Below are positions 14,270-28,648 of a DNA stretch of 64,000 bases, in pieces. Each line of letters begins with the position of its first letter. Position 1 is the first letter of the stretch. Made by a program: the position numbers and the translations under genes. This DNA comes from a phage, in sequence record PZ445448.1, one strand, 5' to 3'. The notes beneath the pieces were generated by a model, which searched no databases, was not told the origin of the DNA, and saw nothing but the letters and a program-made list of their open reading frames with translations.

Positions 14270-14730
14270 ATTTCTAAAATGGATTTCCTCCTTTTGATAT
14301 TTCACCGGGCTGGATATTTTAAAATTCTTAGAAAATCAGAAAATGGATCGAAAACTAAAATGGATTTTTCAGAGTAGGCGCGACAAGCTGAATAACTCAT
14401 CCTATCGTTTGCACCATATTCCAGGCCACCATTATAGATTTCCCACACATGCTAACCTCCCTCTACTAGAACTTCCTCCACTTGCCCTTAACCTTCTATG
14501 GTAACAATCTAACCACTATCTTGAAGTTGCGGTGCAGCTTTCCAAGTACTCGATCTACTTTTCATTTCATGGCTTGGATTTTCTGAAAATTTTTCTCGAT
14601 AAATTTCTCAGTACTCGATCTGTTTTTCGTTTTCTGAATCGGATTTTCTGGAAATCGTTCCGGATCTCGACCTGAAATTTTTGGGGACGAAATCGATTTT
14701 TCGTTTTCAGAAATGGATTTTTAAAATTTC
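14270..14730. repeat. iteron-like direct repeats in AT-rich noncoding region
   Basis: Repeated AAAATGGATTT and two ~50-bp copies AGTACTCGATCT..GGATTTTCTG(A/G)AAAT. Confidence 0.5.
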
Positions 14731-14868
14731 TATATGGGAATATTTTATGGGATACTGTTTTATAGGAAATTGTTACGGAGGGTAATTAGCATGCTAATTA
14801 AATTTATTAAATGCGAGGAGTTCTCATTTAGAATTTTGAATGATAATCATTCTCGTTTGCAGAATAAC

Positions 14869-14914
14869 GGGCAGGCCCGGTGATTGTCTCCCCCGTCACC
14901 GGTGCCTGCCGTCC
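14869..14914 (+). repeat. long palindromic hairpin; inverted-repeat copy A
   Basis: gggcaggcccggtga..tcaccggtgcctgcc; reverse complement of 14870-14894 matches 24494-24518 at 24/25. Confidence 0.6.
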
Positions 14915-15374
14915 TTTCGATAGGTATATTGTGCCACCTGGCGGGGCCGCTGTCAACACTTTTCAAAAAATTTTTCTAACCTGATGCGCTAACCGCTGCA
15001 ACCTGGCGGGGCCAGCCTGGCAGGACCTAACTGACCAGGTAGGAGAGAATGAAGGCTTGTAAACCTGGTGGGCCTATGCTATAGGACAGGTAACAATTGA
15101 AGAGGAGGTACAAAAATGAAAGGTAATGTGATCCCCTGGAAAATGTAGCTATTAATGACGCTGAGGCTATCGCCCTGGTTGAAAAGGCCATGGCGGGAGC
15201 GTTGGAACATAAAGAAGAGTACGAAAAAATGATGGTTAACCTGGTAGGGCGGCGGCAGGTGGATTCTATCATAAAAAATAATTTAAAATAATTGTTGACA
15301 ACCGGGGGAGTCCTGCTATTCTTACCCTACAAGGTGAACAACACCGCACTAACTAGTAAAGAGGATAAAAAATC

Positions 15375-15572
15375 ATGAACGCATACGGAATCAAAGTACG
15401 TCGCAACACTCGCCAGGTGGTCACCGATCAAGTGGTTTGCCTGGTGGATGTAACCATCAACAACGGGCAAGGCCTTTATAAATTTCGTCGCGGTCATAGC
15501 TATACCCTGCAACAGCTTAATCGTTGCGCCCTGACAAAAGGTCAGATCAATCACTGGTTTAATAAAAAATAA
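15375..15572 (+). CDS. hypothetical protein
   Basis: 65 aa; SD agaggataa; weak TTGACA promoter ~15295. Confidence 0.5.
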   Translation: MNAYGIKVRRNTRQVVTDQVVCLVDVTINNGQGLYKFRRGHSYTLQQLNRCALTKGQINHWFNKK

Positions 15573-15575
15573 GTA

Positions 15576-15604
15576 TTGACATACGCCCCGACACAAAATA
15601 TACT
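15576..15604 (+). promoter_or_regulatory. sigma70 promoter
   Basis: TTGACA-17 bp-TATACT. Confidence 0.6.
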
Positions 15605-15636
15605 GAAATCACAAAAGACACTAAGAGGATAAAATC

Positions 15637-16035
15637 ATGAAAACCACAACCTTTAATTTTGACAATGCCGACTTCTCTTTTTCTGATGTCAAGAACTGCC
15701 GCCGTGATCGTGGATTTTACAAGGCTTATAATCTGGTTGGCCTGGACGATGATAATAATTTGCACGAAGTAGCGGAGATCCGGTACTATGCCGCCGCCAG
15801 CGGTAACACTAACTACTGCGTTTTTTGGATACACGACAACAAGAACAATAAGTACGGTTATACTGGCGGCAAGGCGAGCGGTCACGGTTATGATAAAGCT
15901 AACGCAGCACTTGAGAGCGCATTAAATGCTATGGGGATCACTGCCAACGGCTGGATCTATGAAGAAGAGTTTTTGTCAGCACTTGCTGCCCACCTGGGGT
16001 ATAAAAAGCACATTGTGACATGCGCCCACGAATAA
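15637..16035 (+). CDS. hypothetical protein
   Basis: 132 aa; SD agaggataaaatc. Confidence 0.55.
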   Translation: MKTTTFNFDNADFSFSDVKNCRRDRGFYKAYNLVGLDDDNNLHEVAEIRYYAAASGNTNYCVFWIHDNKNNKYGYTGGKASGHGYDKANAALESALNAMGITANGWIYEEEFLSALAAHLGYKKHIVTCAHE

Positions 16036-16050
16036 AAAAAAAAAAAATTA

Positions 16051-16078
16051 TTGACACGCTGCAAAATTCAAGTAAACT
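16051..16078 (+). promoter_or_regulatory. sigma70 promoter with A-tract UP-like element and leader hairpin
   Basis: A14 run, TTGACA-16 bp-TAAACT, then hairpin ggcgggaaTGTttcccgcc (16089-16107). Confidence 0.6.
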
Positions 16079-16127
16079 ATACACAAAAGGCGGGAATGTT
16101 TCCCGCCAACACAAAGGAAAAAAGATC

Positions 16128-16523
16128 ATGAATAAGAACGTACGCCGCATCATGAACGAACTGGCAAACGATGAAAAAATTATTGATATGCATTTGGTCA
16201 ACATTTGCCGCCGTTGTGTAACATATAACAACCGCGCCGCAAAAGCGCGTGAGATGAACGCAAAAGGCACCTTAAAGCCCTTTCAGGTGGTTGTAAAATC
16301 TATAACCAGTGCAGCAGGCCAGGCGCATGACCACAACAACGGGAGCACTAATATTGATCCGTCTTACGTAATGAAACGGATCCGGACTTGCAAGAATAAA
16401 GAGCAGGTGTATAACGTCATAGATTGGCTGGACTCCCTGGGCGATGTGGTTTATAATAGGTTTTCTGCAGCTATCGAGATCCAGCTTGACAGACTGGACG
16501 GGAAAGTACTGAAAACTTACTAA
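16128..16523 (+). CDS. hypothetical protein
   Basis: Start at ATG 16128 after aaaggaaaaaagatc leader; track ORF starts upstream inside promoter. Confidence 0.55.
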   Translation: MNKNVRRIMNELANDEKIIDMHLVNICRRCVTYNNRAAKAREMNAKGTLKPFQVVVKSITSAAGQAHDHNNGSTNIDPSYVMKRIRTCKNKEQVYNVIDWLDSLGDVVYNRFSAAIEIQLDRLDGKVLKTY

Positions 16524-16524
16524 G

Positions 16525-16572
16525 TTTATTTTTAGATGGCCTTGACGCCAGGGCCATCAATAAAGTAAACTA
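16525..16572 (+). repeat. conserved ~45-bp hairpin element, copy 1
   Basis: tttatttttaGATGGCCTTGacgcCAGGGCCATCaataaagtaaact. Confidence 0.6.
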
Positions 16573-16602
16573 ATCCCAGTTAAGCTAAAAGGAGGCTTGA
16601 AG

Positions 16603-16722
16603 ATGAGCACTACACGCCAGCACACAAAGGTAACTATTATCGTTTGCATCATTGGTTATATCCTGGCGCAAATGTTGATGGGTAGCGCCAACGGTGTCGC
16701 AAAATTTTTCTTAAACTTTTAA
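16603..16722 (+). CDS. small hydrophobic peptide (39 aa)
   Basis: SD aaaggagg 7 nt before ATG; TM-like IIVCIIGYILAQMLMG; below ORF-track cutoff. Confidence 0.35.
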   Translation: MSTTRQHTKVTIIVCIIGYILAQMLMGSANGVAKFFLNF

Positions 16723-16750
16723 TTGACAAGCTAACTTAGATCGGTATACT
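16723..16750 (+). promoter_or_regulatory. sigma70 promoter with leader hairpin
   Basis: TTGACA-16 bp-TATACT; leader gggaaaacttccc. Confidence 0.6.
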
Positions 16751-16800
16751 AAACACATCAACGGGAAAACTTCCCAGAACACACAAAAGGAGAAAACACC

Positions 16801-17142
16801 ATGACCACTATGACCGCCGCAGAAAAAGCTATTCAGATCGCTGCCCTGAAAAAACAGATCGCAGACCTTGAGAATAAGATCGATAACTTTGAAATCGACG
16901 AGGACAAGTACGACGAAAACTATGATGAATGGTTAGACGAGATCTACGGCGAAATTATGATCGGAAACATTTCTTTTCTTCCGTCGCGTATCCTCAAGGA
17001 GCTAGATCCTATCGCTTACCGCTGCGGATTTAGCGACTACATCGACAGCCTGGATATTGAGGACGATGAAGAATACCAGGAATTACAGACAGAGTTGGAA
17101 GAAGCAAAAGAAGAGCTTGCGGAGCTGGAAGAAAACGAGTAA
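16801..17142 (+). CDS. highly acidic coiled-coil protein
   Basis: 113 aa, D/E-rich (DIEDDEEYQELQTELEEAKEELAELEENE). Confidence 0.55.
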   Translation: MTTMTAAEKAIQIAALKKQIADLENKIDNFEIDEDKYDENYDEWLDEIYGEIMIGNISFLPSRILKELDPIAYRCGFSDYIDSLDIEDDEEYQELQTELEEAKEELAELEENE

Positions 17143-17143
17143 G

Positions 17144-17190
17144 ATTATTTTTAGATGGCCTTGACTCCAGGGCCATCAATAAAGTAAACT
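17144..17190 (+). repeat. conserved ~45-bp hairpin element, copy 2
   Basis: Same stem GATGGCCTTG/CAGGGCCATC, loop ACTC. Confidence 0.6.
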
Positions 17191-17231
17191 TTATACTGTT
17201 AACACTGAACTAATGCATAGGAGTTAAAACC

Positions 17232-17477
17232 ATGGCAGCACTAATCACTAAATATTACGCCCCTACCAACACCAAAAGCGCCCGTATCATGGTAAAAGGC
17301 TTCGGACGTAAAAAGGTTTACACCTGGGATTATGCCTTAGACACGGAAGACAACTACACCAACGCGATGACAGATTTTATTAATGAGCTGAACACGCGGA
17401 TCTTGACAAATTATAAAATTACCGATATTGCCTATATAGGGGAAGGCGGGATCTGTTTTGTCGGTATCGTCAAATAA
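17232..17477 (+). CDS. hypothetical protein
   Basis: 81 aa; SD aggagttaaaacc. Confidence 0.5.
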   Translation: MAALITKYYAPTNTKSARIMVKGFGRKKVYTWDYALDTEDNYTNAMTDFINELNTRILTNYKITDIAYIGEGGICFVGIVK

Positions 17478-17488
17478 ACTGTTTTTTC

Positions 17489-17512
17489 GGTGGTCCTGGT
17501 AGCAGGGCCATC
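17489..17512 (+). repeat. diverged copy of hairpin element
   Basis: GGTGGTCCTG gtag CAGGGCCATC; stem kept through wobble-compatible changes. Confidence 0.45.
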
Positions 17513-17535
17513 TATAAAGATAGTTTATCAATACA

Positions 17536-17907
17536 ATGAAAGGAGAAAGTAACATGATCAGTGGGGCAAGTTTTATCATTGGCGCTATTGCTACGGCTTT
17601 AATTGTAAATAAGATCCAGGATAAAAAGGAAAGAGGAAGTACCGCCCTTGCAGAATATCCATTTTGGGCATTCAACGATAACGAAGATTATATTATAAAG
17701 TATAAAAATAAAGAAGGTGACCAAGTAACACCACGACCGATCCCGGCTTACAAAATGCAGGAAACACTATACCGCCTGGAGGCGGGTGGCGCAAAAATTG
17801 TAGACTTTTGGGGATACGACCACACAGATCAGGAAGTTATAAAGCGCCGTATCCGGGCTATTCAGGCCAATATTGAAGTTAGCAAGGGGGGAATATATGA
17901 AAATTAA
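17536..17907 (+). CDS. membrane protein
   Basis: N-terminal TM ISGASFIIGAIATALIV; SD aaaggagaaag. Confidence 0.5.
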   Translation: MKGESNMISGASFIIGAIATALIVNKIQDKKERGSTALAEYPFWAFNDNEDYIIKYKNKEGDQVTPRPIPAYKMQETLYRLEAGGAKIVDFWGYDHTDQEVIKRRIRAIQANIEVSKGGIYEN

Positions 17908-18094
17908 TTTCGAGAAAATTGTAAAGCGCCCTCATGATTCCGAAGAGCTGCCAGAACGCCGCCAGCGTAACAATAAACTGAATAAGCCAAAAAGGTTTGG
18001 GAAGATCTGGCGGAATCATTATGATCGTAAATTGCCGGGCCTACTTTTGGAACGTGAACGACAAGCGGAACGATACCGCCACAAAGACAAATAG
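17897..18094 (+). CDS. small basic protein
   Basis: Start at internal ATG after aagggggg SD; R/K-rich. Confidence 0.4.
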   Translation: MKINFEKIVKRPHDSEELPERRQRNNKLNKPKRFGKIWRNHYDRKLPGLLLERERQAERYRHKDK

Positions 18095-18099
18095 CAACC

Positions 18100-18130
18100 A
18101 ACGCCCCGCCATTGTGCGGGGCTTTTTATT
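18100..18130 (+). terminator. rho-independent terminator
   Basis: cgccccgcc attgt gcggggc followed by TTTTTATT. Confidence 0.7.
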
Positions 18131-18251
18131 TCTATCCTACGAATAGCGCCCCTGGTTGGCCCTGTAAGCGCCAAAAAGGCCCCCACCTATGCAATCGCCC
18201 CTTTAACCTGAAAACATCGCCCAGGGCCGTTTTATGGCGTTAAAAATATCA

Positions 18252-18279
18252 TTGACATCGTCAACAGGTTAGCTATACT
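18252..18279 (+). promoter_or_regulatory. sigma70 promoter
   Basis: TTGACA-16 bp-TATACT. Confidence 0.6.
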
Positions 18280-18311
18280 AACCACATCAAAGAGAGAAAG
18301 GAGTAAACGCC

Positions 18312-18572
18312 ATGCGTAAATTAAAAAATTTTGATAAAGTTGATGTTATCCTGAATAATTTTTACTACTGCAACAACAAGGCTATTTGGTGGCGTGATAG
18401 TTCCACCGATAAAGTCAAAGCGCGCTTTCTTCAGGGGCACTGGCAAGGCCGCCCAGTGATTAAAATCATGGGGCAATTGGTAGCGTTTAAAAATTGCCGC
18501 CGTGTTGATGACGTTGAGGAGATTTTAAACATTTTGCGCCACAATAATTTAAAAAATAGTGTTGACAAGTAA
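18312..18572 (+). CDS. hypothetical protein
   Basis: 86 aa; SD aaaggagtaaacgcc. Confidence 0.5.
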   Translation: MRKLKNFDKVDVILNNFYYCNNKAIWWRDSSTDKVKARFLQGHWQGRPVIKIMGQLVAFKNCRRVDDVEEILNILRHNNLKNSVDK

Positions 18573-18589
18573 ATCTCAATAAGTATAAT
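18562..18589 (+). promoter_or_regulatory. sigma70 promoter with leader hairpin
   Basis: TTGACA-16 bp-TATAAT; hairpin ggcgggaaaacttcccgcc. Confidence 0.65.
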
Positions 18590-18646
18590 TAAACACACAG
18601 GCGGGAAAACTTCCCGCCACTAACAAAGAAAACAGGAGAAAATATC

Positions 18647-19270
18647 ATGACCACCGTTAACATTACCACAGGTTACAATTTAGCTTTCGACGTGCTGACC
18701 GACGAACAAAAAGAAAAAGCCGTTGAAATGGTCCGCGAAAGAGAAGAACACAGCGGGGATAACTTTTTTGCAGAAAGTGTAATTGAAGACTATAAAGAAT
18801 ATATCTTTCCAGAGTATGGCCTTGAAGATACCGAAGTACATTGGTCCGGCTTTTGGTGCCAGGGCGACGGCGCATCAATCAGTGCGGAAAACGTGGATTT
18901 AGAAAAATTCTTGCGTAAAGTCAAGTCTCTGACTAAATTCCGCTCAATTCGTCACTTGTTCGGCACAATGCACGATGGCGAGCTATCCGCAAGTGTTGAG
19001 CGCGATCCATATAGCCGTTATAGTCACGAAAACACTGTAAGCGGGTACATCGATACTACATGGCTAGACCTGACCGCCAAACAAGAAAACAAAGTGGAAG
19101 ACCTGGAAGAACTGATCACCGAGACGGTACGGGAGCTATCCCGCAAGGTTTACGTAGACCTGGAGGAGGCCTATCTAGAACAGTTCACCGCAGAAAACCT
19201 GATCGGCCTTATCGAGGCCAATGATTGGCGGTTTGATGTCGATGAATATGGTGAGATGACTTTTTCATAA
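18647..19270 (+). CDS. hypothetical protein
   Basis: 207 aa acidic; SD aacaggagaaaatatc. Confidence 0.55.
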   Translation: MTTVNITTGYNLAFDVLTDEQKEKAVEMVREREEHSGDNFFAESVIEDYKEYIFPEYGLEDTEVHWSGFWCQGDGASISAENVDLEKFLRKVKSLTKFRSIRHLFGTMHDGELSASVERDPYSRYSHENTVSGYIDTTWLDLTAKQENKVEDLEELITETVRELSRKVYVDLEEAYLEQFTAENLIGLIEANDWRFDVDEYGEMTFS

Positions 19271-19278
19271 ATAAAGTG

Positions 19279-19306
19279 TTGCAATAACCTAAAAACCTGC
19301 TATATT
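19279..19306 (+). promoter_or_regulatory. sigma70 promoter with leader hairpin
   Basis: TTGCAA-16 bp-TATATT; hairpin gggggcaagacgtttgccccc. Confidence 0.6.
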
Positions 19307-19360
19307 AAAACTCAAGGGGGCAAGACGTTTGCCCCCACACAAAACAAAGAGGAAAACATC

Positions 19361-19741
19361 ATGAAAAACACTACTAAAGCTATTGACACTGTTATGTTTA
19401 ACCTGGTTACATTCCGTGAAGATATGAAAGATCTTCCACGTGAAACAGTGTGCGATCACATTGAAAACTATCGCAAACTAATCAAAGAGTTGCCTTTAAA
19501 ACGTGACCAGTATGCGGCTAACGCTATGCTTAACGCCATGATCAAAAAGATGATTCAGTGTGATTTAACTCTGGCCTATGATTATGCAGGTGGTCGTTTT
19601 GCAGTATACAATCAGCCCGTGCCTGGTATGAGCACCACCGAAGAATTGCACGCGTTAAATCTGAAACAAGATGTATGGGATAACATGCCCCGCGTGGTGG
19701 TGTGGGCAGAAAGCGGAAAGATTTACGGCGATAATTTTTAA
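19361..19741 (+). CDS. hypothetical protein
   Basis: 126 aa; SD agaggaaaacatc. Confidence 0.55.
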   Translation: MKNTTKAIDTVMFNLVTFREDMKDLPRETVCDHIENYRKLIKELPLKRDQYAANAMLNAMIKKMIQCDLTLAYDYAGGRFAVYNQPVPGMSTTEELHALNLKQDVWDNMPRVVVWAESGKIYGDNF

Positions 19742-19749
19742 TCAGGTAA

Positions 19750-19777
19750 CAGGCGGCATATTTGCCGCCTTATTGTT
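19750..19777 (+). terminator. rho-independent terminator
   Basis: ggcggca tatt tgccgcc then TTATTGTT. Confidence 0.55.
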
Positions 19778-19805
19778 AAACAGAACTGCAAAAGAGGTAC
19801 ATAGA

Positions 19806-20177
19806 ATGGAATTTATTATTTTGGCTGTAGTAGTTGCCTTGTTCAACGCCTGGATCGCTGGCAAGATAGGTAGATCCGCTTTTCTATGGTTTGTTATATC
19901 TATTTTCCTGGGAGTGGTTGCAACTATTGTATTGGTTATCCTTGCAATTGTTGACAAGGGCGATAATAGAAAGGGTAAAGTGTTTTCCGACCTGTATGAC
20001 GCACAAACGTTTGTCAACGCCTATTATAGTGATCTTCCAGTCTCCCTACGCTGCAGCCTGGCACAACAGGTTTTTGATGAGGCTAAAACCAGAGACCAAG
20101 CCCATGAGATATGTTTAACTGAAGCGGATCGCCTATTTGAGAGGAATAGAAAATATGTGGACCAGCCGTTTAAATAA
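19806..20177 (+). CDS. membrane protein
   Basis: Start at ATG 19806 (SD agaggtacatag); two hydrophobic segments. Confidence 0.5.
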   Translation: MEFIILAVVVALFNAWIAGKIGRSAFLWFVISIFLGVVATIVLVILAIVDKGDNRKGKVFSDLYDAQTFVNAYYSDLPVSLRCSLAQQVFDEAKTRDQAHEICLTEADRLFERNRKYVDQPFK

Positions 20178-20396
20178 CGCCACGTTAATTAATCCCTTTA
20201 GTGAAGATTTGAAGCCAGCCGCCTGGCGTGACGGATTCAATAACGAACGCTTTATTTTCAGGCCTGATCTTGAGGAATTTTATAACAATGGATCGAACAA
20301 CAGCGGAGATAATTTTTCTTGTGGTGTGCGTGGTGATAGGACTCCTGGGGGCCATTGTAAACCACGTCACTACTAACAGGAGGGAAGGGGGAGACG

Positions 20397-20516
20397 ATGA
20401 CAACCAAGGATAAGCCATGCGCTGATAAGGTGCGCCGTGTTATGGTATGGCTTGAGATTATCGCCCTTGAAATATTGTTAGGCGTAGGGATGTACTTTAT
20501 CGCTGTAAGTAACTAA
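20397..20516 (+). CDS. small hydrophobic peptide (39 aa)
   Basis: Strong SD aggagggaaggggga; TM-like VMVWLEIIALEILLGVGMYFIAV. Confidence 0.35.
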   Translation: MTTKDKPCADKVRRVMVWLEIIALEILLGVGMYFIAVSN

Positions 20517-20518
20517 GA

Positions 20519-20550
20519 GCGGCCCCCGATCATGGGGGCCTATCTTTTAA
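20519..20550 (+). terminator. rho-independent terminator
   Basis: ggcccccgatcatgggggcc then TATCTTTT. Confidence 0.6.
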
Positions 20551-20570
20551 AAAATTTTTCTTCCGGGGTG

Positions 20571-20598
20571 TTGCAATCCGGTCCGGAATGTGGATAAT
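20571..20598 (+). promoter_or_regulatory. sigma70 promoter with leader hairpin
   Basis: TTGCAA-16 bp-GATAAT; hairpin ggggagctaatcccc. Confidence 0.6.
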
Positions 20599-20654
20599 AA
20601 CAATCAACGGGGAGCTAATCCCCACCACCACAAAAACCAGAAAGGAGAAACAAA

Positions 20655-20855
20655 ATGAGCAACAATATCCGCGTTATTAACTTCAAAAAAGAAGAAAAAA
20701 TTGCCGTGCTGATTGACGGTCAAGAAATCTTCAAGGGCGACTATGAAGATCATCAAACGGCGATTAGTATCACTCGCGTGATTGGTTATCATAATTTCTA
20801 CCCCCAAGGCGCTGAGGCAGCAGTTAAACGAATCAAAGAGATTGTAGGCCTGTAA
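20655..20855 (+). CDS. hypothetical protein
   Basis: 66 aa; SD aaaggagaaacaaa. Confidence 0.55.
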   Translation: MSNNIRVINFKKEEKIAVLIDGQEIFKGDYEDHQTAISITRVIGYHNFYPQGAEAAVKRIKEIVGL

Positions 20856-20856
20856 A

Positions 20857-20905
20857 ATTTATTTTTAGATGGCCTTGACTTCAGGGCCATCGATAAAGTA
20901 AATTT
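20857..20905 (+). repeat. conserved ~45-bp hairpin element, copy 3
   Basis: Same stem GATGGCCTTG/CAGGGCCATC, loop ACTT. Confidence 0.6.
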
Positions 20906-20948
20906 AAACCCTGTTAAAATACCACGCAGTTAACAAGGAGTGATAGAC

Positions 20949-21248
20949 ATGTTTATCCAGGCTAATAATCTTTATTTCTTTGATGGTCAGATCGTAGATG
21001 GTGTGGAAGTGGAGATCACCGGGTGCCCTGGCGGTCAGGCTATGACTTTTCGGAATAATGCCTTTGATGATTCTCATATCGTTATGAGAATGGAAGTTAC
21101 GAAGCTGGACGACAAGAAAACACTTATTGACTATTCTGTGAAAGATCATCCAGACTACCGCATGATCCATGGTGATTTGTGCATTGTTGACCGTGACAAG
21201 GTGGGCGGCATTGTGATCGCTATTGTGAACGATGTTTTCTCAAACTAA
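20949..21248 (+). CDS. hypothetical protein
   Basis: ATG 20949 with SD aaggag 8 nt upstream. Confidence 0.5.
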   Translation: MFIQANNLYFFDGQIVDGVEVEITGCPGGQAMTFRNNAFDDSHIVMRMEVTKLDDKKTLIDYSVKDHPDYRMIHGDLCIVDRDKVGGIVIAIVNDVFSN

Positions 21249-21265
21249 TTTCAGCAGGCGATTTT

Positions 21266-21616
21266 ATGAAAGTCAAACTATATTACCTTAATGAGCTTAA
21301 CCCCCTTGCCCAGGTCCGCGCCCTAGCTAATACCTTGATTTGTGAGAAATCTGTATATTGTGTTGAGCTTAACGCCATGCGTGAACGTCTCAAAGGTGGT
21401 TACTTTGACATCCATGCTGCAATCAACGGCCTGAATATGGAATTTATACGCTTACGTAACAGCCGCCGGAATCTGGCAAGAATGGAACAAGATCCGGCCC
21501 ACCTTCGTAAGCTGGTTATTGAAAATCATCTGATGTTTAATGCCGAGGGTGATTATTACCATTTTCACCGCAAACGCTGGTACCGTGGCGGCAATACAGG
21601 CAAGAATGCAAAATAA
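21266..21616 (+). CDS. hypothetical protein
   Basis: 116 aa basic ORF. Confidence 0.5.
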   Translation: MKVKLYYLNELNPLAQVRALANTLICEKSVYCVELNAMRERLKGGYFDIHAAINGLNMEFIRLRNSRRNLARMEQDPAHLRKLVIENHLMFNAEGDYYHFHRKRWYRGGNTGKNAK

Positions 21617-21650
21617 GGCCCCTAGCAGGGCCTGCAGCAATATAATCACA

Positions 21651-21684
21651 TAAAGGCCATGCGGTTGCATGGCCTTTATTATTT
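21651..21684 (+). terminator. rho-independent terminator
   Basis: aaaggccatgc ggtt gcatggccttt then ATTATTTT. Confidence 0.7.
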
Positions 21685-21733
21685 TGGCGTTACAACGGCA
21701 TACGGGGCGCTTAAAAAATTTTTAAAGAAGTAC

Positions 21734-21761
21734 TTGCATCATTCCCGACAATATGGATAAT
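21734..21761 (+). promoter_or_regulatory. sigma70 promoter with leader hairpin
   Basis: TTGCAT-16 bp-GATAAT; hairpin gggggaggccccc. Confidence 0.6.
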
Positions 21762-21818
21762 AAGAGTTGTCGAGGGGGAGGCCCCCAATCGTTGACCAGA
21801 TAGATAGGAGTTAAAATC

Positions 21819-22103
21819 ATGGCTATTGTTACCGCTGGCGATGTAGTAGAAATGGAAGCAAAATACTTAAAAGCGGGTATGCACATCCTACGGAATGATC
21901 AAGAGTTATTATTAACGATGGTTGACTATAATCACGGCCAGGATTATCCAAGCATCGACTACTTTTTTGAGTATGTTGATGAAGAGTTGAAAGAGGATGA
22001 GGCCTATTGCGGTGAGTTCTGCAACTTCTTTTGTCCTGATGAGGTTGTAAAGGTTATTTATCAACCTGGCGTAGCTTTCCCGCTGCACGCTATCAATAAA
22101 TAA
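21819..22103 (+). CDS. hypothetical protein
   Basis: 94 aa acidic; SD ataggagttaaaatc. Confidence 0.55.
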   Translation: MAIVTAGDVVEMEAKYLKAGMHILRNDQELLLTMVDYNHGQDYPSIDYFFEYVDEELKEDEAYCGEFCNFFCPDEVVKVIYQPGVAFPLHAINK

Positions 22104-22158
22104 ACCTGGCGGGGCCGAAAAGGCCCCCAATTATGAAAATAAAGAGAGGCAAATCATC

Positions 22159-22392
22159 ATGATGGAACAAATTAAACGCGCCGAGGCTATTAATGGCAAC
22201 GTGATCTATTTTGTCAGCAAAAACGAAAAAGGCGTACCATATGCGGCAGTAATAGTACAACCTGACGGCGATTATTGGTTTACTGTGTACGGCGCTTATT
22301 CTTTTGGGCGTCCAGTGCATGATAAAATTTTGAAAGTAGCGAACCCTACCGGGAAGAATATCACAGCAGAAAAATTTTTTGAAAATAGTTGA
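22159..22392 (+). CDS. hypothetical protein
   Basis: 77 aa; SD aagagaggc. Confidence 0.5.
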   Translation: MMEQIKRAEAINGNVIYFVSKNEKGVPYAAVIVQPDGDYWFTVYGAYSFGRPVHDKILKVANPTGKNITAEKFFENS

Positions 22393-22416
22393 CATGACCA
22401 TATAAGACTGTAATAT
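22389..22416 (+). promoter_or_regulatory. sigma70 promoter with leader hairpin
   Basis: TTGACA-16 bp-TAATAT; hairpin gggggcaactaacccc. Confidence 0.6.
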
Positions 22417-22467
22417 ATAAATCAAAGGGGGCAACTAACCCCACCAACTACAAAGAGGATAAAAATC

Positions 22468-22647
22468 ATGGCTATTATTGCAAAGACTGAGATCGTAGGC
22501 TTAGATTCTATTCTCCTCGCATATGAGGAAGCTATAGAAATGTATGTGGTTTCCTATGGTGAGTATATCCGTGAATATAAATCTATTGATCTGGCTTTTG
22601 AATGTTATATCCGCCAGGTTAATAAAGCGTACGATGATTATCGTTAA
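22468..22647 (+). CDS. hypothetical protein (59 aa)
   Basis: SD agaggataaaaatc; below ORF-track cutoff. Confidence 0.4.
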   Translation: MAIIAKTEIVGLDSILLAYEEAIEMYVVSYGEYIREYKSIDLAFECYIRQVNKAYDDYR

Positions 22648-22653
22648 AATAGT

Positions 22654-22682
22654 TTGACAACAGCCATCTTACAAAGCATAAT
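22654..22682 (+). promoter_or_regulatory. sigma70 promoter with leader hairpin
   Basis: TTGACA-17 bp-CATAAT; hairpin ggcggtggaatggtccgcc. Confidence 0.6.
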
Positions 22683-22734
22683 ACATAAGGCGGTGGAATG
22701 GTCCGCCACCTGGAACAAAGAAGAGGTAAACACC

Positions 22735-22980
22735 ATGAAAAGCAATAAAGGTTATAACGGTTACAAAAACAAAACTCATTGGAATGTAAGCCTTTGGATT
22801 AATAACGATGAGTCATTGTACCGGTTGGCCCAAGGCTTTATTAACGCCAATGCTAATCGTAATGATGCGGCGCGGGATATGATGCTTTTTCTGGAGCTAA
22901 CCGGACAAGATAAGACCCCGGACGGCTTCAAGTACAGCACTACGGCGATCCGTGCCGCGATGGTTGGAATGAAACACTAA
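22735..22980 (+). CDS. hypothetical protein
   Basis: Start at ATG 22735 after agaggtaaacacc leader. Confidence 0.5.
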   Translation: MKSNKGYNGYKNKTHWNVSLWINNDESLYRLAQGFINANANRNDAARDMMLFLELTGQDKTPDGFKYSTTAIRAAMVGMKH

Positions 22981-23057
22981 AAGCACATAGCTGCCTTACC
23001 CTGGGGCTGTGGTAGCGGCCCCATGAATAAGGTTACTAACAGAAGAGAATAAACACC

Positions 23058-23162
23058 ATGAAACAGAAATTAATCGATGCAGTGATCTTGGTTATTGCCC
23101 TGGGTATTGGCCTGATTGCAACCATGTCTAATATGATCTTGTCTTCCAACGGTATCGGGTGA
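23058..23162 (+). CDS. small hydrophobic peptide (34 aa)
   Basis: SD agaagagaataaacacc; TM-like AVILVIALGIGLIATM. Confidence 0.35.
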   Translation: MKQKLIDAVILVIALGIGLIATMSNMILSSNGIG

Positions 23163-23171
23163 GGTTGGCAA

Positions 23172-23387
23172 ATGATCACTAACAAAACAGGCAAAACGGA
23201 ATTTTTACGCAACTTACAGATCGGCAAGCCTGAGATCTGGTACTGCACTAAAACACCACGTGACGAAATGAAAGACTTCACCGCCACGCTGCAACGGGTA
23301 AAGATATCTATCACGCAGAAAAAGGCCTTACTAGTGGTGGAAGGGGAGATCCCCCAAACCGTTGTTATAGTTGAGCGTACAGCATAG
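23172..23387 (+). CDS. hypothetical protein
   Basis: 71-aa ORF. Confidence 0.45.
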   Translation: MITNKTGKTEFLRNLQIGKPEIWYCTKTPRDEMKDFTATLQRVKISITQKKALLVVEGEIPQTVVIVERTA

Positions 23388-23478
23388 TTTAATTTATACA
23401 GATACCTGAAAATTAACCAACAAAGCATAAACAGGCGGTTACCGCCGCCTTAAACGTAGCAGAAAGAGGATAGACACA

Positions 23479-23763
23479 ATGAAAAAGATGATCGCAGTGG
23501 TTACCCTGGTTGTTGGACTTAATGCGCCTGTAATGGCTAAAGAGCTGGCAAAAGAGGTTAATCTAACGGATATTCATGCCGTCAATCAAATCGGGGTTAC
23601 TTATCGCTTATGCCTTGCCGCTAAAACTTTTAAGGACGGCACAACAGAGTACTACGGATTCGAGGGTATCCGGTGCGGTGAGCTTGCTCGCGACCTTAAG
23701 GAAGATCCAGACCTGGAGGATCTGCCCATAACCGTGAACGGAAAAACTTACGTGAACCGTTAA
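23479..23763 (+). CDS. secreted/periplasmic protein
   Basis: Signal-peptide-like MKKMIAVVTLVVGLNAPVMA; SD agaggatagacaca. Confidence 0.55.
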   Translation: MKKMIAVVTLVVGLNAPVMAKELAKEVNLTDIHAVNQIGVTYRLCLAAKTFKDGTTEYYGFEGIRCGELARDLKEDPDLEDLPITVNGKTYVNR

Positions 23764-23765
23764 CC

Positions 23766-23900
23766 ATGAGAAAGATAATTATTACCATGGGGATCGTGGC
23801 GGCAATGTTGGCGATCTTTCCCTTTATGGTTAGGTATGTGCTGATTAATGTTGTCCTGGTAGTCAGCGATCTGGTGTTATATATTAACTCATTGTTTTAG
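23766..23900 (+). CDS. small hydrophobic peptide (44 aa)
   Basis: ATG overlaps upstream stop; TM-like ITMGIVAAMLAIFPFMVRYVLINVVLVV. Confidence 0.3.
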   Translation: MRKIIITMGIVAAMLAIFPFMVRYVLINVVLVVSDLVLYINSLF

Positions 23901-23908
23901 GCGCGATA

Positions 23909-24100
23909 ATGACAGCGGAAGAAGTTAAAAAAGTACTGGCGGTACTGCGTTATCATAATCATTGCAAGGTGAAGAATGATCCTGATTATCTTGATTCATC
24001 CCTTGAAGAGGATACACTACAAGCCATAAGCAACATGCAAGAATTGCTTAAGCGTATGACAGAGAAAAACCGACCGGACTACATAGGGGGTAAAATATGA
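23909..24100 (+). CDS. hypothetical protein
   Basis: 63-aa ORF. Confidence 0.45.
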   Translation: MTAEEVKKVLAVLRYHNHCKVKNDPDYLDSSLEEDTLQAISNMQELLKRMTEKNRPDYIGGKI

Positions 24101-24408
24101 TCGCTATTACGCCAACCGTTTTAGATTGGTATCGGCAACGCATAGCGCCTCCGCTGGCTATCTTCAAAGATGCGGAAGCAAAACAACGCCGGATCTCAAT
24201 ACATGAGATCATCAACCTTAACGCTGGAGGCACACCATACCGCCCAGGACCTGGCCGTGAGATGGACAATACATTGGCGATCCTGAAGATACGCCGTAAA
24301 CGGTCCTCCCTTACGCTGGATTCATTACACACAATGCAGTCCCCGTTCCAGGTGACTGGGAAACGGATCGCCAGGTCCTGGACAAAGGCCAATGACCGGA
24401 CCGTATAA
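24097..24408 (+). CDS. hypothetical basic protein
   Basis: 103 aa, R/K-rich, ATGA overlap with upstream gene. Confidence 0.45.
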   Translation: MIAITPTVLDWYRQRIAPPLAIFKDAEAKQRRISIHEIINLNAGGTPYRPGPGREMDNTLAILKIRRKRSSLTLDSLHTMQSPFQVTGKRIARSWTKANDRTV

Positions 24409-24493
24409 ATAAAAAGTGTTTTGGTACTGATTTTGGGGTTGACTTGTTCGGCCCCTTTTGCTATTCTTATTAAACGGGCGGCACTTGGGAACA

Positions 24494-24518
24494 GGGGGAG
24501 ACAATCACCAGGCCTGCC
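24494..24518 (+). repeat. inverted-repeat copy B
   Basis: gggggagacaatcaccaggcctgcc = reverse complement of 14870-14894 with one mismatch. Confidence 0.6.
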
Positions 24519-24543
24519 TGTCATATAAGAACTATAAAAACCG

Positions 24544-24572
24544 TTGACATCTGCCAGGGGGTGGGGTAACAT
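24544..24572 (+). promoter_or_regulatory. sigma70 promoter with leader hairpin
   Basis: TTGACA-17 bp-TAACAT; hairpin ggggcaaaggtgccc. Confidence 0.55.
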
Positions 24573-24626: not shown

Positions 24627-24899
24627 ATGTCAAGCTGGATTAATCAAGAAGTCGAATCACGTTTTAATGCTATTTGGGATCTCATCGAAAAAGAAGACGG
24701 CACATCAAGCCCCTACCTCAACAATTTGGAATTCCATTTTGTGGAAGCGATGAACGCAGAACATGATCACGAAGGTGGTGCGGACGAGTTCGCTAAAGGG
24801 TATGGCTTCAACAATGCCAACGAAATGATCGAGGCGGTTGTACTCCAGGCTGAGGAAGATTATCAATTAAAAACGCTTGAATTCTGCCGCCGTAAGTAA
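24627..24899 (+). CDS. hypothetical protein
   Basis: 90 aa acidic; SD agagaggaaaacact. Confidence 0.55.
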   Translation: MSSWINQEVESRFNAIWDLIEKEDGTSSPYLNNLEFHFVEAMNAEHDHEGGADEFAKGYGFNNANEMIEAVVLQAEEDYQLKTLEFCRRK

Positions 24900-25810: not shown

Positions 25811-25836
25811 GCTTAGGCCCCTTTCTTTTTGTCTGC
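25811..25836 (+). terminator. rho-independent terminator ending plus-strand block
   Basis: aggggc tta gcccct then TTCTTTTT. Confidence 0.65.
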
Positions 25837-25839
25837 TCT

Positions 25840-28310
25840 TCCTCCTACCACAAACGGCCCAGCCTGGCAAGTGGAATAATTGACTAGCCATCAATCCCAC
25901 ACACTGTACAAATATACATGGAAAATAACTATTGCATAATTTTTCATTGTGTGGTAGCAGGTCCATTTTTACCCGTTTTCTCTCTCAAAATTGCACGTAA
26001 TGCCGCTATTGCACAAAATTTAACCTGATGCACATCTTCAATATCTTGTCAACAACTAAAAATCTTTATAAGTCATACACTTACACACTCACAAAAGCGT
26101 GTTCTACGTGAAAAATCGAGTATAACTATAGCCGCCAGATCTCAGAATTTACGTACGCTCACCATTCTATAGTCTGCTAAGTATTTATTCCAACCATGGA
26201 ATAACGGAATAGTCAATACCTGCATAAAATAATTATTCGTGTAAACTGCATAACATAAATCAGCTCAGGTGTCAACATTTTTCGTAAACAGTCCGAAATT
26301 GTCACGGTGAGTTATCATAAACAGAGAAATATTTAGTCGTCTAATGTTTACTGTACATTACTATACTGACTGGAATCATTAGATGACTAAGAGAAAGATA
26401 AGAAATAATTAACAATACAATTATTTTATCTGTAACAATAAGGCAACTATGCAAACGAATGGCATGGCGCGACGGAGTCGCGACATAATATAAAAGCAGT
26501 AACCATCACCCCCGTGATAGTTTGTCTGCAAACTATTAATCAGATCATAGTTGCCTTGTATTTAGTTAATCATGACATAACAAGCAAGGCAACTATAGAT
26601 CTTCTAATAGTTGCCCTGCTTTTATATTATGTCATAGAAACACCCGAAGGGGTGACCAAAGGTCACCTGGCATGGCCAGTGAAAGATTATTAACTTGTTA
26701 ATTGTTAACTTGCTAATTGTTTTCATGCAAACGAATGTCATGGCTTATCCTATCTGTGTAAACAGTCAAGGTGTAAACTATCCAGGCGTAAACAATCTAT
26801 ACGTGAACAGTGAAACATGAAATAATAACAGTCGTTATTGTGTCGAAAGTGTATAAGGTGTCATAGTATGTCAGACAAGTTTTTCTCCTCTTTGTCAAGT
26901 GCTGCATGAAAAATTTACAAGCTTGTATGGTAGCATTTTTGCTGCCCTGTTTACATTCAGTTGTGTATGTATAACCCTTGTTGTGTGGGCGTTTAGACGT
27001 CTAGACGGTTGGAAGTCCGCAGGTTAATATCTAATCTATTGGCTGCTAACTATATCCCACACAAATAGTAAGAAATATAATTGTTATGTGCGTAAACAGT
27101 AACTCATGTTATCAATCCCTGTATGTATCGCCAGTGGTGCGCATAATGGGTATTATGTTAAATTGCCCGTAATGATAACTATTCTCACAATGATAGGTAT
27201 TCTCATTCACTCCCACAAGATAGGTTGCAAATGTTGTGCCACTGTGTGAACGGCCTCACCTATTAATTTGCCTCACTGCCTCGATATTTGAGAATTGTTA
27301 TAAGAATGAGAAGTATTCCCATTTCGTCCGCCTGGCAGCACTCCAGTCGCTACCGCTCATGACAGGGCAGAACTAGACCCTCTTCAGATATTTCTGGCTG
27401 ACTCTTCAGGCCTGTGTGGGAAAAGCCAACCTCTCCGGCGGCGGGGAGGGGTTTGTCAGGAAAATTGCAGGTCAATTAAAAAATTTACGTGGTATATGAA
27501 GCGCTCTTCAGGTAAGGCATGTATTATGGGATGAAACCCTCTTCAGGCAATGATATTTGTGGGTGTGATATTTGCTGGAAAGCCAGATATGACGGGACTC
27601 CCGGCGGGGCAGGGGTAGTACAGACAGGGGAAATATGGAGGATGTAGTTGGGGGAGTTGATCAAACAGGTAGAGTATGGAATATGTTACAAGTATGTTAA
27701 ATATGGAGGGTGGATATCTGTAGGATTTATGTGTAAAATCAAAGACTTAAGTGGTGTTGTGGTATTTTCTATAAATAATTCAAGTTTAATAGGTAATATT
27801 TGTCTCTATCCGCTTTGTGTGGTAAACAAATTCAGATGGTGTTGGTTTACAAGTGTATACATAATATACAAATTAAAGATACAAGAAACCCCCCTCCCCC
27901 TTCGGCTACCATTCACCTTTTCCTCTGACTGGTACTTAAACACTTATTCAGACTCTTCAGGTTATCACCCATATATCATATGGCAGTGACTGGTGTCCTC
28001 CGGCCCCTCTTTCGTCACCCGTCCGCTTCGCCATGCTAATGCCATAGCCAATGGTTCGGTTGTTCACCCTGTTCACTCAGGTGTATCTCCATACCCCTTC
28101 AAACCGAAGAGAACAGAAAACCCGAATTACTCGGTAAAAGAAAAGAGAAGAACTTAATTTTATCAGGATAGGCAAGAATGTCAAGGCATGACTGCTCACT
28201 AAACAAGCAAACAGTCATGTGTGGGAGGTAAGTGATTGTGGTGGTAGGAAATTTAGTTGAAAGATGTGTTATAGGTGCTCCCAGCACTTTAGCCGGGTAG
28301 CTAATTGTGT
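25840..28310. repeat. 2.5-kb repeat-rich noncoding convergent intergenic region
   Basis: No convincing ORF; GGCAACTAT/ATAGTTGCC inverted repeats, GGTGACCaaaGGTCACC palindrome, GTAAAC clusters, CTCTTCAGG x5-6, G-rich motifs. Confidence 0.6.
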
Positions 28311-28311
28311 G

Positions 28312-28527
28312 TCAGTCCAGTGGTTCATCACCTACTTCACTGAAATCAATGTTCATGGTCTCCTCCCAACCATCAATCTCAGCACCAGAGTAGAGATCTT
28401 TAGGACTTACTCCCAAAGCATCAGCAACAGAGTCCATATTTAACACCTCTGGCAGGTATGATTTATCGAATTCAAGGTAAATCAGGCCACGAGTATTGTC
28501 AGCTCCACCAAATATTTCTATCTTCAT
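28312..28527 (-). CDS. hypothetical acidic protein
   Basis: 71-aa ORF, first gene of minus block. Confidence 0.45.
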   Translation of the reverse strand: MKIEIFGGADNTRGLIYLEFDKSYLPEVLNMDSVADALGVSPKDLYSGAEIDGWEETMNIDFSEVGDEPLD

Positions 28528-28648
28528 GAAATCTCCTCTGGAAATGAGAGTGTGAACAGGGTTTTATACGTTCCGATGCACAGGAATTATGCACGTTTTC
28601 CTCTTCAGGCCATGCTTTAGCATGAGGAACCTGTGTGGGCTCGGTGCT

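Follow-up and report, generated by a model that had tools for sequence, protein, structure and literature searches.

Small non-coding transcription units of lytic phages provide the closest described counterparts to the element treated here, a conserved promoter-linked unit that occurs twice in a 64,000-nucleotide stretch of phage DNA (sequence record PZ445448.1; this whole stretch is called the window below). The small RNAs (sRNAs) sRNA1 and sRNA2 of phage PAK_P3 and the band C/D RNAs of T4 are, like this element, intergenic units of ~100 nt in large lytic myoviruses and have no assigned function. Other systems share part of its architecture. The ops/JUMPStart signal read by RfaH is a 12-nt leader motif that is orientation-dependent, occurs in multiple copies and lies at a variable distance from its promoter; the lambdoid nut sites (boxA/boxB) and the antiterminator of the rrn leader set a promoter-proximal hairpin beside a conserved single-stranded sequence; the T7 phi1.1A/1.1B promoters with their AT-rich region and T4 oriF/oriG combine tandem promoters directed into AT- or repeat-rich non-coding DNA with a T7-type replisome, as is the case here; and the Hin/Gin/Cin segments place an inverted repeat of ~26 bp around a multi-kb segment, again as at this locus.

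The original prediction had pointed to a pair of 25-bp inverted repeats with 24/25 identity, and we recovered the pair as claimed, with GGGGGAGACAATCACCGGGCCTGCC as the reverse complement of positions 14870-14894 (copy A, minus strand) and GGGGGAGACAATCACCAGGCCTGCC at 24494-24518 (copy B, plus strand). These two sites were the only matches to the 25-mer at ≤3 mismatches in the 64-kb window, and because 0/100 dinucleotide-preserving shuffles held such matches, we agree that a chance origin is improbable. A repeat finder extended the pair without gaps to 31 nt at 90% identity. Both copies do lie in intergenic DNA, and the string aacgggc(a/g)g that they were said to have in common was confirmed, being the complement of the unit's 3' tail at A and the unit's 5' arm at B. 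The window comes from an rV5-like Vequintavirus with 98% identity to Escherichia phage MaxTheCat (Bas57) over the region, and its 14-25 kb segment, which is matched by 308 phage records, is an early region transcribed rightward with many small genes, sigma70-type promoters and terminators.

Comparison across phages identifies the two 25-mers as the conserved cores of two paralogous copies of a promoter-linked non-coding element, without description in Rfam or in the literature that we found. Around each 25-mer extends a unit of ~60 nt, in which an invariant block, GAGACAAnCACC, is followed by G-rich, CTGCC and ATTC positions and is adjoined by a short, variable hairpin. Our set of the unit comprises 51 distinct variants, drawn from cultured phages (rV5, EdH4, isim, PVP-SE1, CR3, CR8, POP15, F5M1E, Hena1, SSBI34, W70, ABPH49, phiWec181, alia and FKP3), IMG/VR contigs and metagenomes. 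Their anchored alignment yielded one conserved block, GGGAGACAAnCACCGGnCCTGCCCGYYATTC, with little or no variation in GAGACAA and CACC and with a 5' part that is G-rich but variable. A profile (R1) built from other phages, with the window copies excluded, matched the window at both sites only, over ~60 nt each: copy A at 14857-14915 on the minus strand (48.7 bits, E=4e-14) and copy B at 24468-24530 on the plus strand (50.8 bits, E=9e-15), the next best match having E=2.8. The invariant core, GAGACAATCACC, lies at 14879-14890 (minus strand) in copy A and at 24498-24509 (plus strand) in copy B. Upstream of the unit, 51/51 variants carry a TTGACA/TATAAT-type promoter on the same strand, that is, a promoter of their own as in sRNA genes, with a mean best score of 9.57 of 12.5 compared to 6.95 ± 0.17 in shuffles, and the orientation of the element equalled that of its promoter in every one of the 51. 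The distance from the end of the -10 hexamer to the core ranged from 23 to 57 nt with a mode of 29-30 nt, and this variability argues against a rigid DNA contact with promoter-bound RNA polymerase.

In BLAST and pattern scans, five genera or lineages of the Vequintavirinae and both sampled genera of the Stephanstirmvirinae proved to carry the unit, with Vequintavirus, Seunavirus, Certrevirus, Henunavirus, W70, Phapecoctavirus, Justusliebigvirus, Nankokuvirus and uncultured contigs as the unit-bearing groups; the uncultured carriers include several contigs of the freshwater-type dataset Ga0315903 and one 214-kb contig. In Pseudomonas Nankokuvirus PAP-JP the unit reads TTGACA-17-CATTCT ... GAGACAAACACCGCCCCTGCCCGC and is followed by three GAAAATCTGTCGAGTACCTT iterons. 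Compared to the phage sRNAs described above, the family extends over several subfamilies and has an invariant 12-mer as its defining feature; it is also present in Nankokuvirus, the genus of PAK_P3, but identity with sRNA1 or sRNA2 was rejected because the published sequences of both lack the core. The pseudo-ToxI of phage phiTE was likewise rejected as a match, differing in locus and sequence. Among 185,579 bacterial species, each represented by one genome, the block had 17 matches in unrelated taxa and none in enterobacteria, which is about the number estimated for chance. The element is phage-specific, and a host counterpart or host mimicry was rejected on the same grounds. An IMG/VR scan with a 16-mer gave mostly chance matches and was set aside. 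Rfam 15, at gathering and at permissive thresholds, had no match in the window, at either site or in the elements of related loci, and a scan of the window for transfer RNA (tRNA) and transfer-messenger RNA found none.

Copy A differs from its counterparts in related phages. Its predicted promoter P_A (14928-14956, minus strand; promoter scan) has TTGACA, a 17-bp spacer and TGg-CACAAT, with an A/T-rich stretch upstream; it is kept in all relatives in the alignment, and its upstream/-35 region (14951-14977) has 93% identity to that of a rightward early promoter (22368-22394). A sequence reading together with a family-wide helix test (see below) placed hairpin P1 of this copy, CCG-GUGA-CGG, at 14893-14902 on the minus strand, adjoining the core. 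Phages MaxTheCat, EdH4 and isim possess two tandem minus-strand units at a spacing of ~135 bp, A1 (GGCAGGCACCGGTGAC-GGGGGAGACAA-CCACCGGGGATGGG) and A2 (GCCGGGGCAACAGGGGCC-GGGAGACAA-TCACCGGGCCTGCC), each having its own promoter and related tails downstream. Alignment with these relatives revealed that copy A consists of the 5' half of A1 and the 3' half of A2, joined within the 9-bp microhomology GGGAGACAA (14884-14892, minus strand) and leaving a 134-bp gap relative to all three. All of the relatives listed match in two BLAST pieces with ~134 extra bases between them (L003:2371-2529 among them), and the fused form was found in none of 50,697 phage records, although a fused copy would rank first. 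Copy A is thus the product of a 134-bp deletion by crossover between A1 and A2 that is private to this genome. The deletion costs one promoter and one of the palindromic boxes described below, and what is gained is a near-perfect palindrome of 41 nt (14870-14910), which folds as RNA at -31.8 kcal/mol (z=-4.1). Because this palindrome stems from the deletion and is absent from relatives, it is an accident of this genome and not a conserved feature; the larger palindrome in which copy A was said to be embedded is accordingly real, if near-perfect rather than perfect, but a by-product of a private event. It is also in this one respect only that the suggested footprint of past rearrangement holds. 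An alternative origin of the 134 bp, as a miniature inverted-repeat transposable element or insertion sequence with a 9-bp target duplication, was rejected, the extra sequence being a diverged tandem copy of the tail, box and promoter of the unit itself. Further pairings of 5' and 3' halves are present in metagenomic contig L156, so homology-driven exchange between units has recurred at the core. In databases, 'hypothetical protein' calls run across A1/A2 or the element in MaxTheCat (bas57_0099, L003:2341-2616), with similar coding sequences in FFH2 and FKP3; these calls are probably spurious because the frame is not conserved.

At copy B, the terminator hairpin of the upstream gene (24435-24455, plus strand) holds in its loop the TTGACT that serves as the -35 of the predicted promoter P_B (24439-24467, plus strand; TTGACT-17-TGcTATTCT with an extended -10; promoter scan), and the same terminator-promoter fusion precedes the B units of rV5, CR8, POP15 and SSBI34. 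Hairpin P1 of this copy, CUUG-GGAA-CAGG, is at 24484-24495 (plus strand), just 5' of the core. Some 35 nt past the unit, the next early promoter (24544-24572, plus strand) drives the gene at 24627-24899 and is the equivalent of P168, which carries a promoter annotation in rV5. Terminator hairpins with an internal TTGAC -35 and a subsequent -10 also occur at 16521-16571, 17140-17190, 17475-17525 and 20854-20904, and such combinations of terminator and internal promoter form compact 'stop and restart' modules, represented by repeat family D1 and the B unit, that are reused across the early region.

The placement of the two units accounts for the repeat. Unit A is directed leftward, convergent with the upstream early genes, into a region of palindromes and iterons without open reading frames (ORFs), and unit B rightward, directly after the terminator, toward an ORF-free region of ~2.7 kb (25.8-28.6 kb), so that the units face outward from a 9.6-kb early block, and this is why their cores form an inverted repeat. 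The same layout is kept in Certrevirus phages CR8, F5M1E and POP15, which have almost no other nucleotide similarity to the window; there a minus-strand A precedes a plus-strand B by 9.4-10.6 kb. The original prediction had proposed that such repeats could be paired sites at which a recombinase inverts or excises the 9.6-kb early segment. In favour of this, a long inverted match brackets a discrete block, and the bracketing is kept in Certrevirus; the core also takes part in exchange, given the deletion here and the shuffled halves in L156. When a synthetic junction expected from inversion at the 25-mers was compared to the phage collection, however, 117 records matched its halves and 0/117 covered the inverted 9.6-kb junction to at least 80% in one place, and all long matches to the 14-25 kb region, full-length ones included, were collinear. 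When the 10 largest ORFs between 13 and 26 kb were searched with Pfam, none had a recombinase domain, in keeping with the earlier statement that no recombinase gene is evident, and integrases were reported to be absent from a related phage, phiTE (PMC3475682). The conserved block GAGACAAnCACC...CTGCC is asymmetric, unlike the imperfect palindromes with a central dinucleotide that serve as crossover sites in Hin/Gin/Cin-type systems, and it is tied to a promoter in one orientation. In freshwater contig L191 two copies stand as direct repeats 4 kb apart, which means that inversion symmetry is not a property of the family. With no inverted junction, no recombinase domain in the 10 ORFs scanned and an asymmetric block, site-specific inversion or excision is very unlikely, to the point that we leave it next to no probability. 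The core does mediate exchange between units, which is rare and of the ordinary, homology-driven kind, as with the deletion in this genome. The shared operator that had been offered as another possibility came nearer in spirit, since both copies do belong to one promoter-tied regulatory or non-coding family, with an operator in the strict sense surviving as one alternative among those weighed below.

Downstream of unit A, leftward transcription from P_A would reach several ordered sequence features. A Fur-box-like 7-1-7 palindrome, TGATAATCATTCTCG (family consensus TGAGAATnATTCTCA), lies at 14841-14855, an 18-bp perfect palindrome, TAATTAGCATGCTAATTA, at 14783-14800, and tandem repeats of ~65 bp with iterons of the form GAAAA-N-(A)TCGAGTAC at 14536-14721. 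The Fur-box-like palindrome also follows the A-type units of PVP-SE1, CR3, phiWec181, FKP3, L187 and L199, with 2-5 copies in CR3, phiWec181, FKP3, L187 and L199, and four more boxes cluster at 27173-27321 in the second ORF-free region. Counted over the window, there are 9 boxes compared to 5.3 expected, which is not significant by itself; the clustering and cross-genus conservation of the boxes are striking, and host Fur or a phage protein could bind them. Iterons homologous to those of the window follow the element in Cronobacter phage CR3 (L006:1670-1860) and Pseudomonas phage PAP-JP (L201:800-890), which suggests an ancient, possibly origin-like, protein-binding array. In the second region (25830-28600), transcription direction flips and cumulative GC skew peaks, and short repeats were seen both as GTAAAC-type motifs every ~10-15 bp (26756-26815) and as inverted AAGGCAACTAT motifs (26440-26620); this region may correspond to the ORF-free 'non-coding' box drawn on the map of the rV5 genome paper, which says no more on it.

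Two further observations concern non-coding DNA near the units of other phages. A second conserved, GC-rich non-coding element of ~85 nt, ending in GGTGGATCGCCGGTAG(C/T)TCG and containing an ops-like CGGTAG, was seen at L005:1320-1410, L006:1325-1415, L131:280-310 and, in L134/L135, upstream of the A promoter; it has its own promoter in CR3, had no Rfam or tRNA matches and is not evident in the window. Between it and the A-unit promoter stand two TGTAAAGA repeats in PVP-SE1, CR3 and FKP3 and one in ABPH49 and Hena1. Past the second copy in L191 (L191:4640-4760), another perfect TTGACA-17-TATAAT promoter is followed by a further putative short terminated transcript (CCTACT-TTAAT-AGTAGG-TTTT), which gives the stretch the appearance of a small group of candidate sRNA genes.

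As to what the element does, we give roughly an even chance to the reading in which the two paralogous, promoter-proximal non-coding units act at the RNA level. In L191 (copy at 605), L189, L186 and L192/L198, a canonical intrinsic terminator lies 20-100 nt past the core, so that several distant lineages possess promoter-to-terminator transcription units of ~75-125 nt, and the ORFs that flank the unit in L191 lie on the opposite strand; because these units stand alone, the element looks like a small RNA. Next to the core, a helix of 3-5 bp that differs in sequence was present in 21/21 sequence clusters, with pairs including GCGA/UCGC, CGCA/UGCG, GUGA/UCAC, CACUA/UAGUG and GCGGG/CCCGC, and with compensation as in the change from CCGG/CCGG to CCAG/CUGG. 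The summed score of this P1 helix was 79 compared to 45.8 ± 6.9 in dinucleotide shuffles (z=4.8). A small peptide was rejected because the ATG-initiated frames across the core, as read from the variant sequences, were inconsistent among them. We infer from these features that the element is transcribed and acts as RNA. Host RNA polymerase would start at the sigma70-type promoter 23-57 nt upstream, and the start of the transcript would present the variable hairpin P1 and then the invariant block GAGACAAnCACC-(G)GnCCUGCC-CGYYAUUC, for which no conserved pairing partner was found. This block would serve as a sequence-specific RNA recognition module, either a base-pairing seed or a protein-binding site, that a small or leader RNA would carry at its 5' end. 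Unit A would fire leftward against the flow of early genes and unit B rightward straight past a terminator, and the near-identity of the two cores would result from strong selection on the block together with occasional exchange between units.

Several results weigh against such a role. RNAalifold gave a consensus fold of 0 over all variants, mean minimum free energy (MFE) z-scores were -1.0 for the sense and -0.7 for the antisense strand with no larger conserved fold, and the duplex of the 5' G-rich and 3' C-rich parts (z-score -0.5) was no better than composition; a long 'outer helix' read by eye was dropped on these three tests. Conserved primary sequence is also what one expects of a DNA-binding site. 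The A and B units of enteric phages, those of the window included, are without a canonical terminator, so that 'small RNA' is an extrapolation there, and a duplex-energy search for targets in the window, CR8 and POP15 returned as strong complements only the antisense strands of the elements themselves. The literature searched held nothing usable on Vequintavirinae transcriptomes, and the RNA sequencing study of PAK_P3, which reported sRNA1 and sRNA2, did not flag this locus. On balance, an RNA-level role, in which a short hairpin would present an otherwise unpaired invariant block, is unproven and is most likely the correct reading, being the best supported.

The block might instead be read as DNA or within the transcription bubble, as a pause or loading site for an elongation or antitermination factor or as an operator for a phage protein. 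This is unlikely, albeit worth serious attention, as a 12-mer that is strongly conserved in a setting where RNA folding hardly is, in a leader position and in fixed orientation to its promoter, is what such a site would look like, and operator-like palindromes follow the A units. Hairpin P1 ends 0-3 nt ahead of the 12-nt core, a distance that fits hairpin-dependent pauses, with a G at -10, a C at -1 and a G at +1 when the last C of the core sets the numbering. Unit B moreover opens a transcription unit with further terminators to cross. Loading of an antiterminator would nevertheless make no sense where a strong terminator follows within 20-100 nt, as in several lineages, or where the genes are convergent, as in L191, and a distance of 23-57 nt between -10 and core does not favour a site of this kind. 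Similarity to ops/RfaH also ends at the architecture, since GAGACAAnCACC is unrelated to the ops consensus GGCGGTAGnnTG, some copies of the element are terminated at once, and neither a NusG-like nor another cognate factor has been linked to it. In comparison to rrn and lambda the order of parts differs, GNRA-type loops occur in P1 of B and A1 units only, no boxA (CGCTCTTTA-like) lies 5' of P1, and no N-like protein was noted, no search having been aimed at N homologues; homology to the rrn leader was rejected, as this order differs and only the 8-mer AGACAATC is common to the element and the E. coli rrnB leader, and a half-site of the downstream palindrome accounts better for the 'boxA-like' CGYYATTCTG of the element. 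Likenesses to the P22 boxB loop (GACAA), the type I-E CRISPR repeat, the 16S 3' end and a T7 primase site (TTGTC, complement) need indels or cover 5-6 nt only and were set aside. A plainer explanation, that the units are intrinsic (possibly bidirectional) terminators or RNA-stabilising 5' stem-loops with no sequence-specific role, would suit the fold of copy A (-31.8 kcal/mol on both strands), the well-folding B-type units of Vequintavirus (z about -2.5 to -3) and the 5' hairpins that follow other early promoters in the window. It has only a slight chance of being right, given that the strong A hairpin exists in this genome only and many members fold no better than shuffles, that the tails (CGUUAUUCUG, UGUCAUAUAAG) have no U-tract and neither copy was called in a terminator scan, and that what is conserved is a stretch without a conserved pairing partner and not a stem.

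Replication offers another setting, in which the units would be origin-associated promoters whose G-rich transcripts prime or activate replication as R-loop or primer, the core being the site of handover to the replication machinery, on the model of the transcription-dependent origins T7 phi1.1A/B, T4 oriF and ColE1. Unit A, with two tandem promoters in relatives, points into ORF-free palindromic boxes, AT-rich DNA and iterons, the promoter-element-iteron module with TCGAGTAC iterons is kept from E. coli to Pseudomonas phages, and unit B points to the second large non-coding region (25.8-28.6 kb) with the same boxes. The rV5-like phages also possess a T7-type primase-helicase and Pol A (PMC3606486). 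We nonetheless regard this setting as doubtful: shifts in GC skew only track transcription direction (PMC3606486), the copies of the freshwater contigs and of L192 are short units that end in a terminator, with no iterons downstream where read, and what comes after unit B in Vequintavirus is a promoter and genes rather than iterons. Compared to the T7 and T4 origins, the units here use host sigma70 promoters, their 30-nt leader block has no counterpart, and iteron-free copies exist. One could tentatively suppose, at a probability that we would still call low, that the GAGACAAnCACC unit is a cis-acting or non-coding RNA module universal to a very large clade of lytic myoviruses, which takes in rV5-like, phAPEC8-like, KPP10/PAK_P3-like and uncultured freshwater phages. 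The module would mark and operate the replication origin or origins or a dedicated transcription-elongation switch, with the 12-mer docking a conserved phage or host factor and the Fur-box-like palindromes and TCGAGTAC iterons belonging to the same machine.

For phage genomics more broadly, the locus is a caution that a long inverted repeat in an early region may be nothing more than a single regulatory unit present in two divergently oriented copies. Phages of the rV5-like, phAPEC8-like and PAK_P3-like groups are in wide use in phage therapy and biocontrol collections, and their origin and early regulation are unmapped. A ~30-nt block that is near-invariant from E. coli to Pseudomonas and freshwater phages points to unusually strong selection, as does its constant placement just past a host-type promoter. 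The two small loci, which are mutable in Bas57/MaxTheCat-like phages, provide a handle on small or leader RNA function, on the origin and on any factor that reads the motif. What is new here is a family, of phage small or leader RNAs or of a cis-regulatory motif, with unusually deep conservation and an intriguing association with origin-like DNA.

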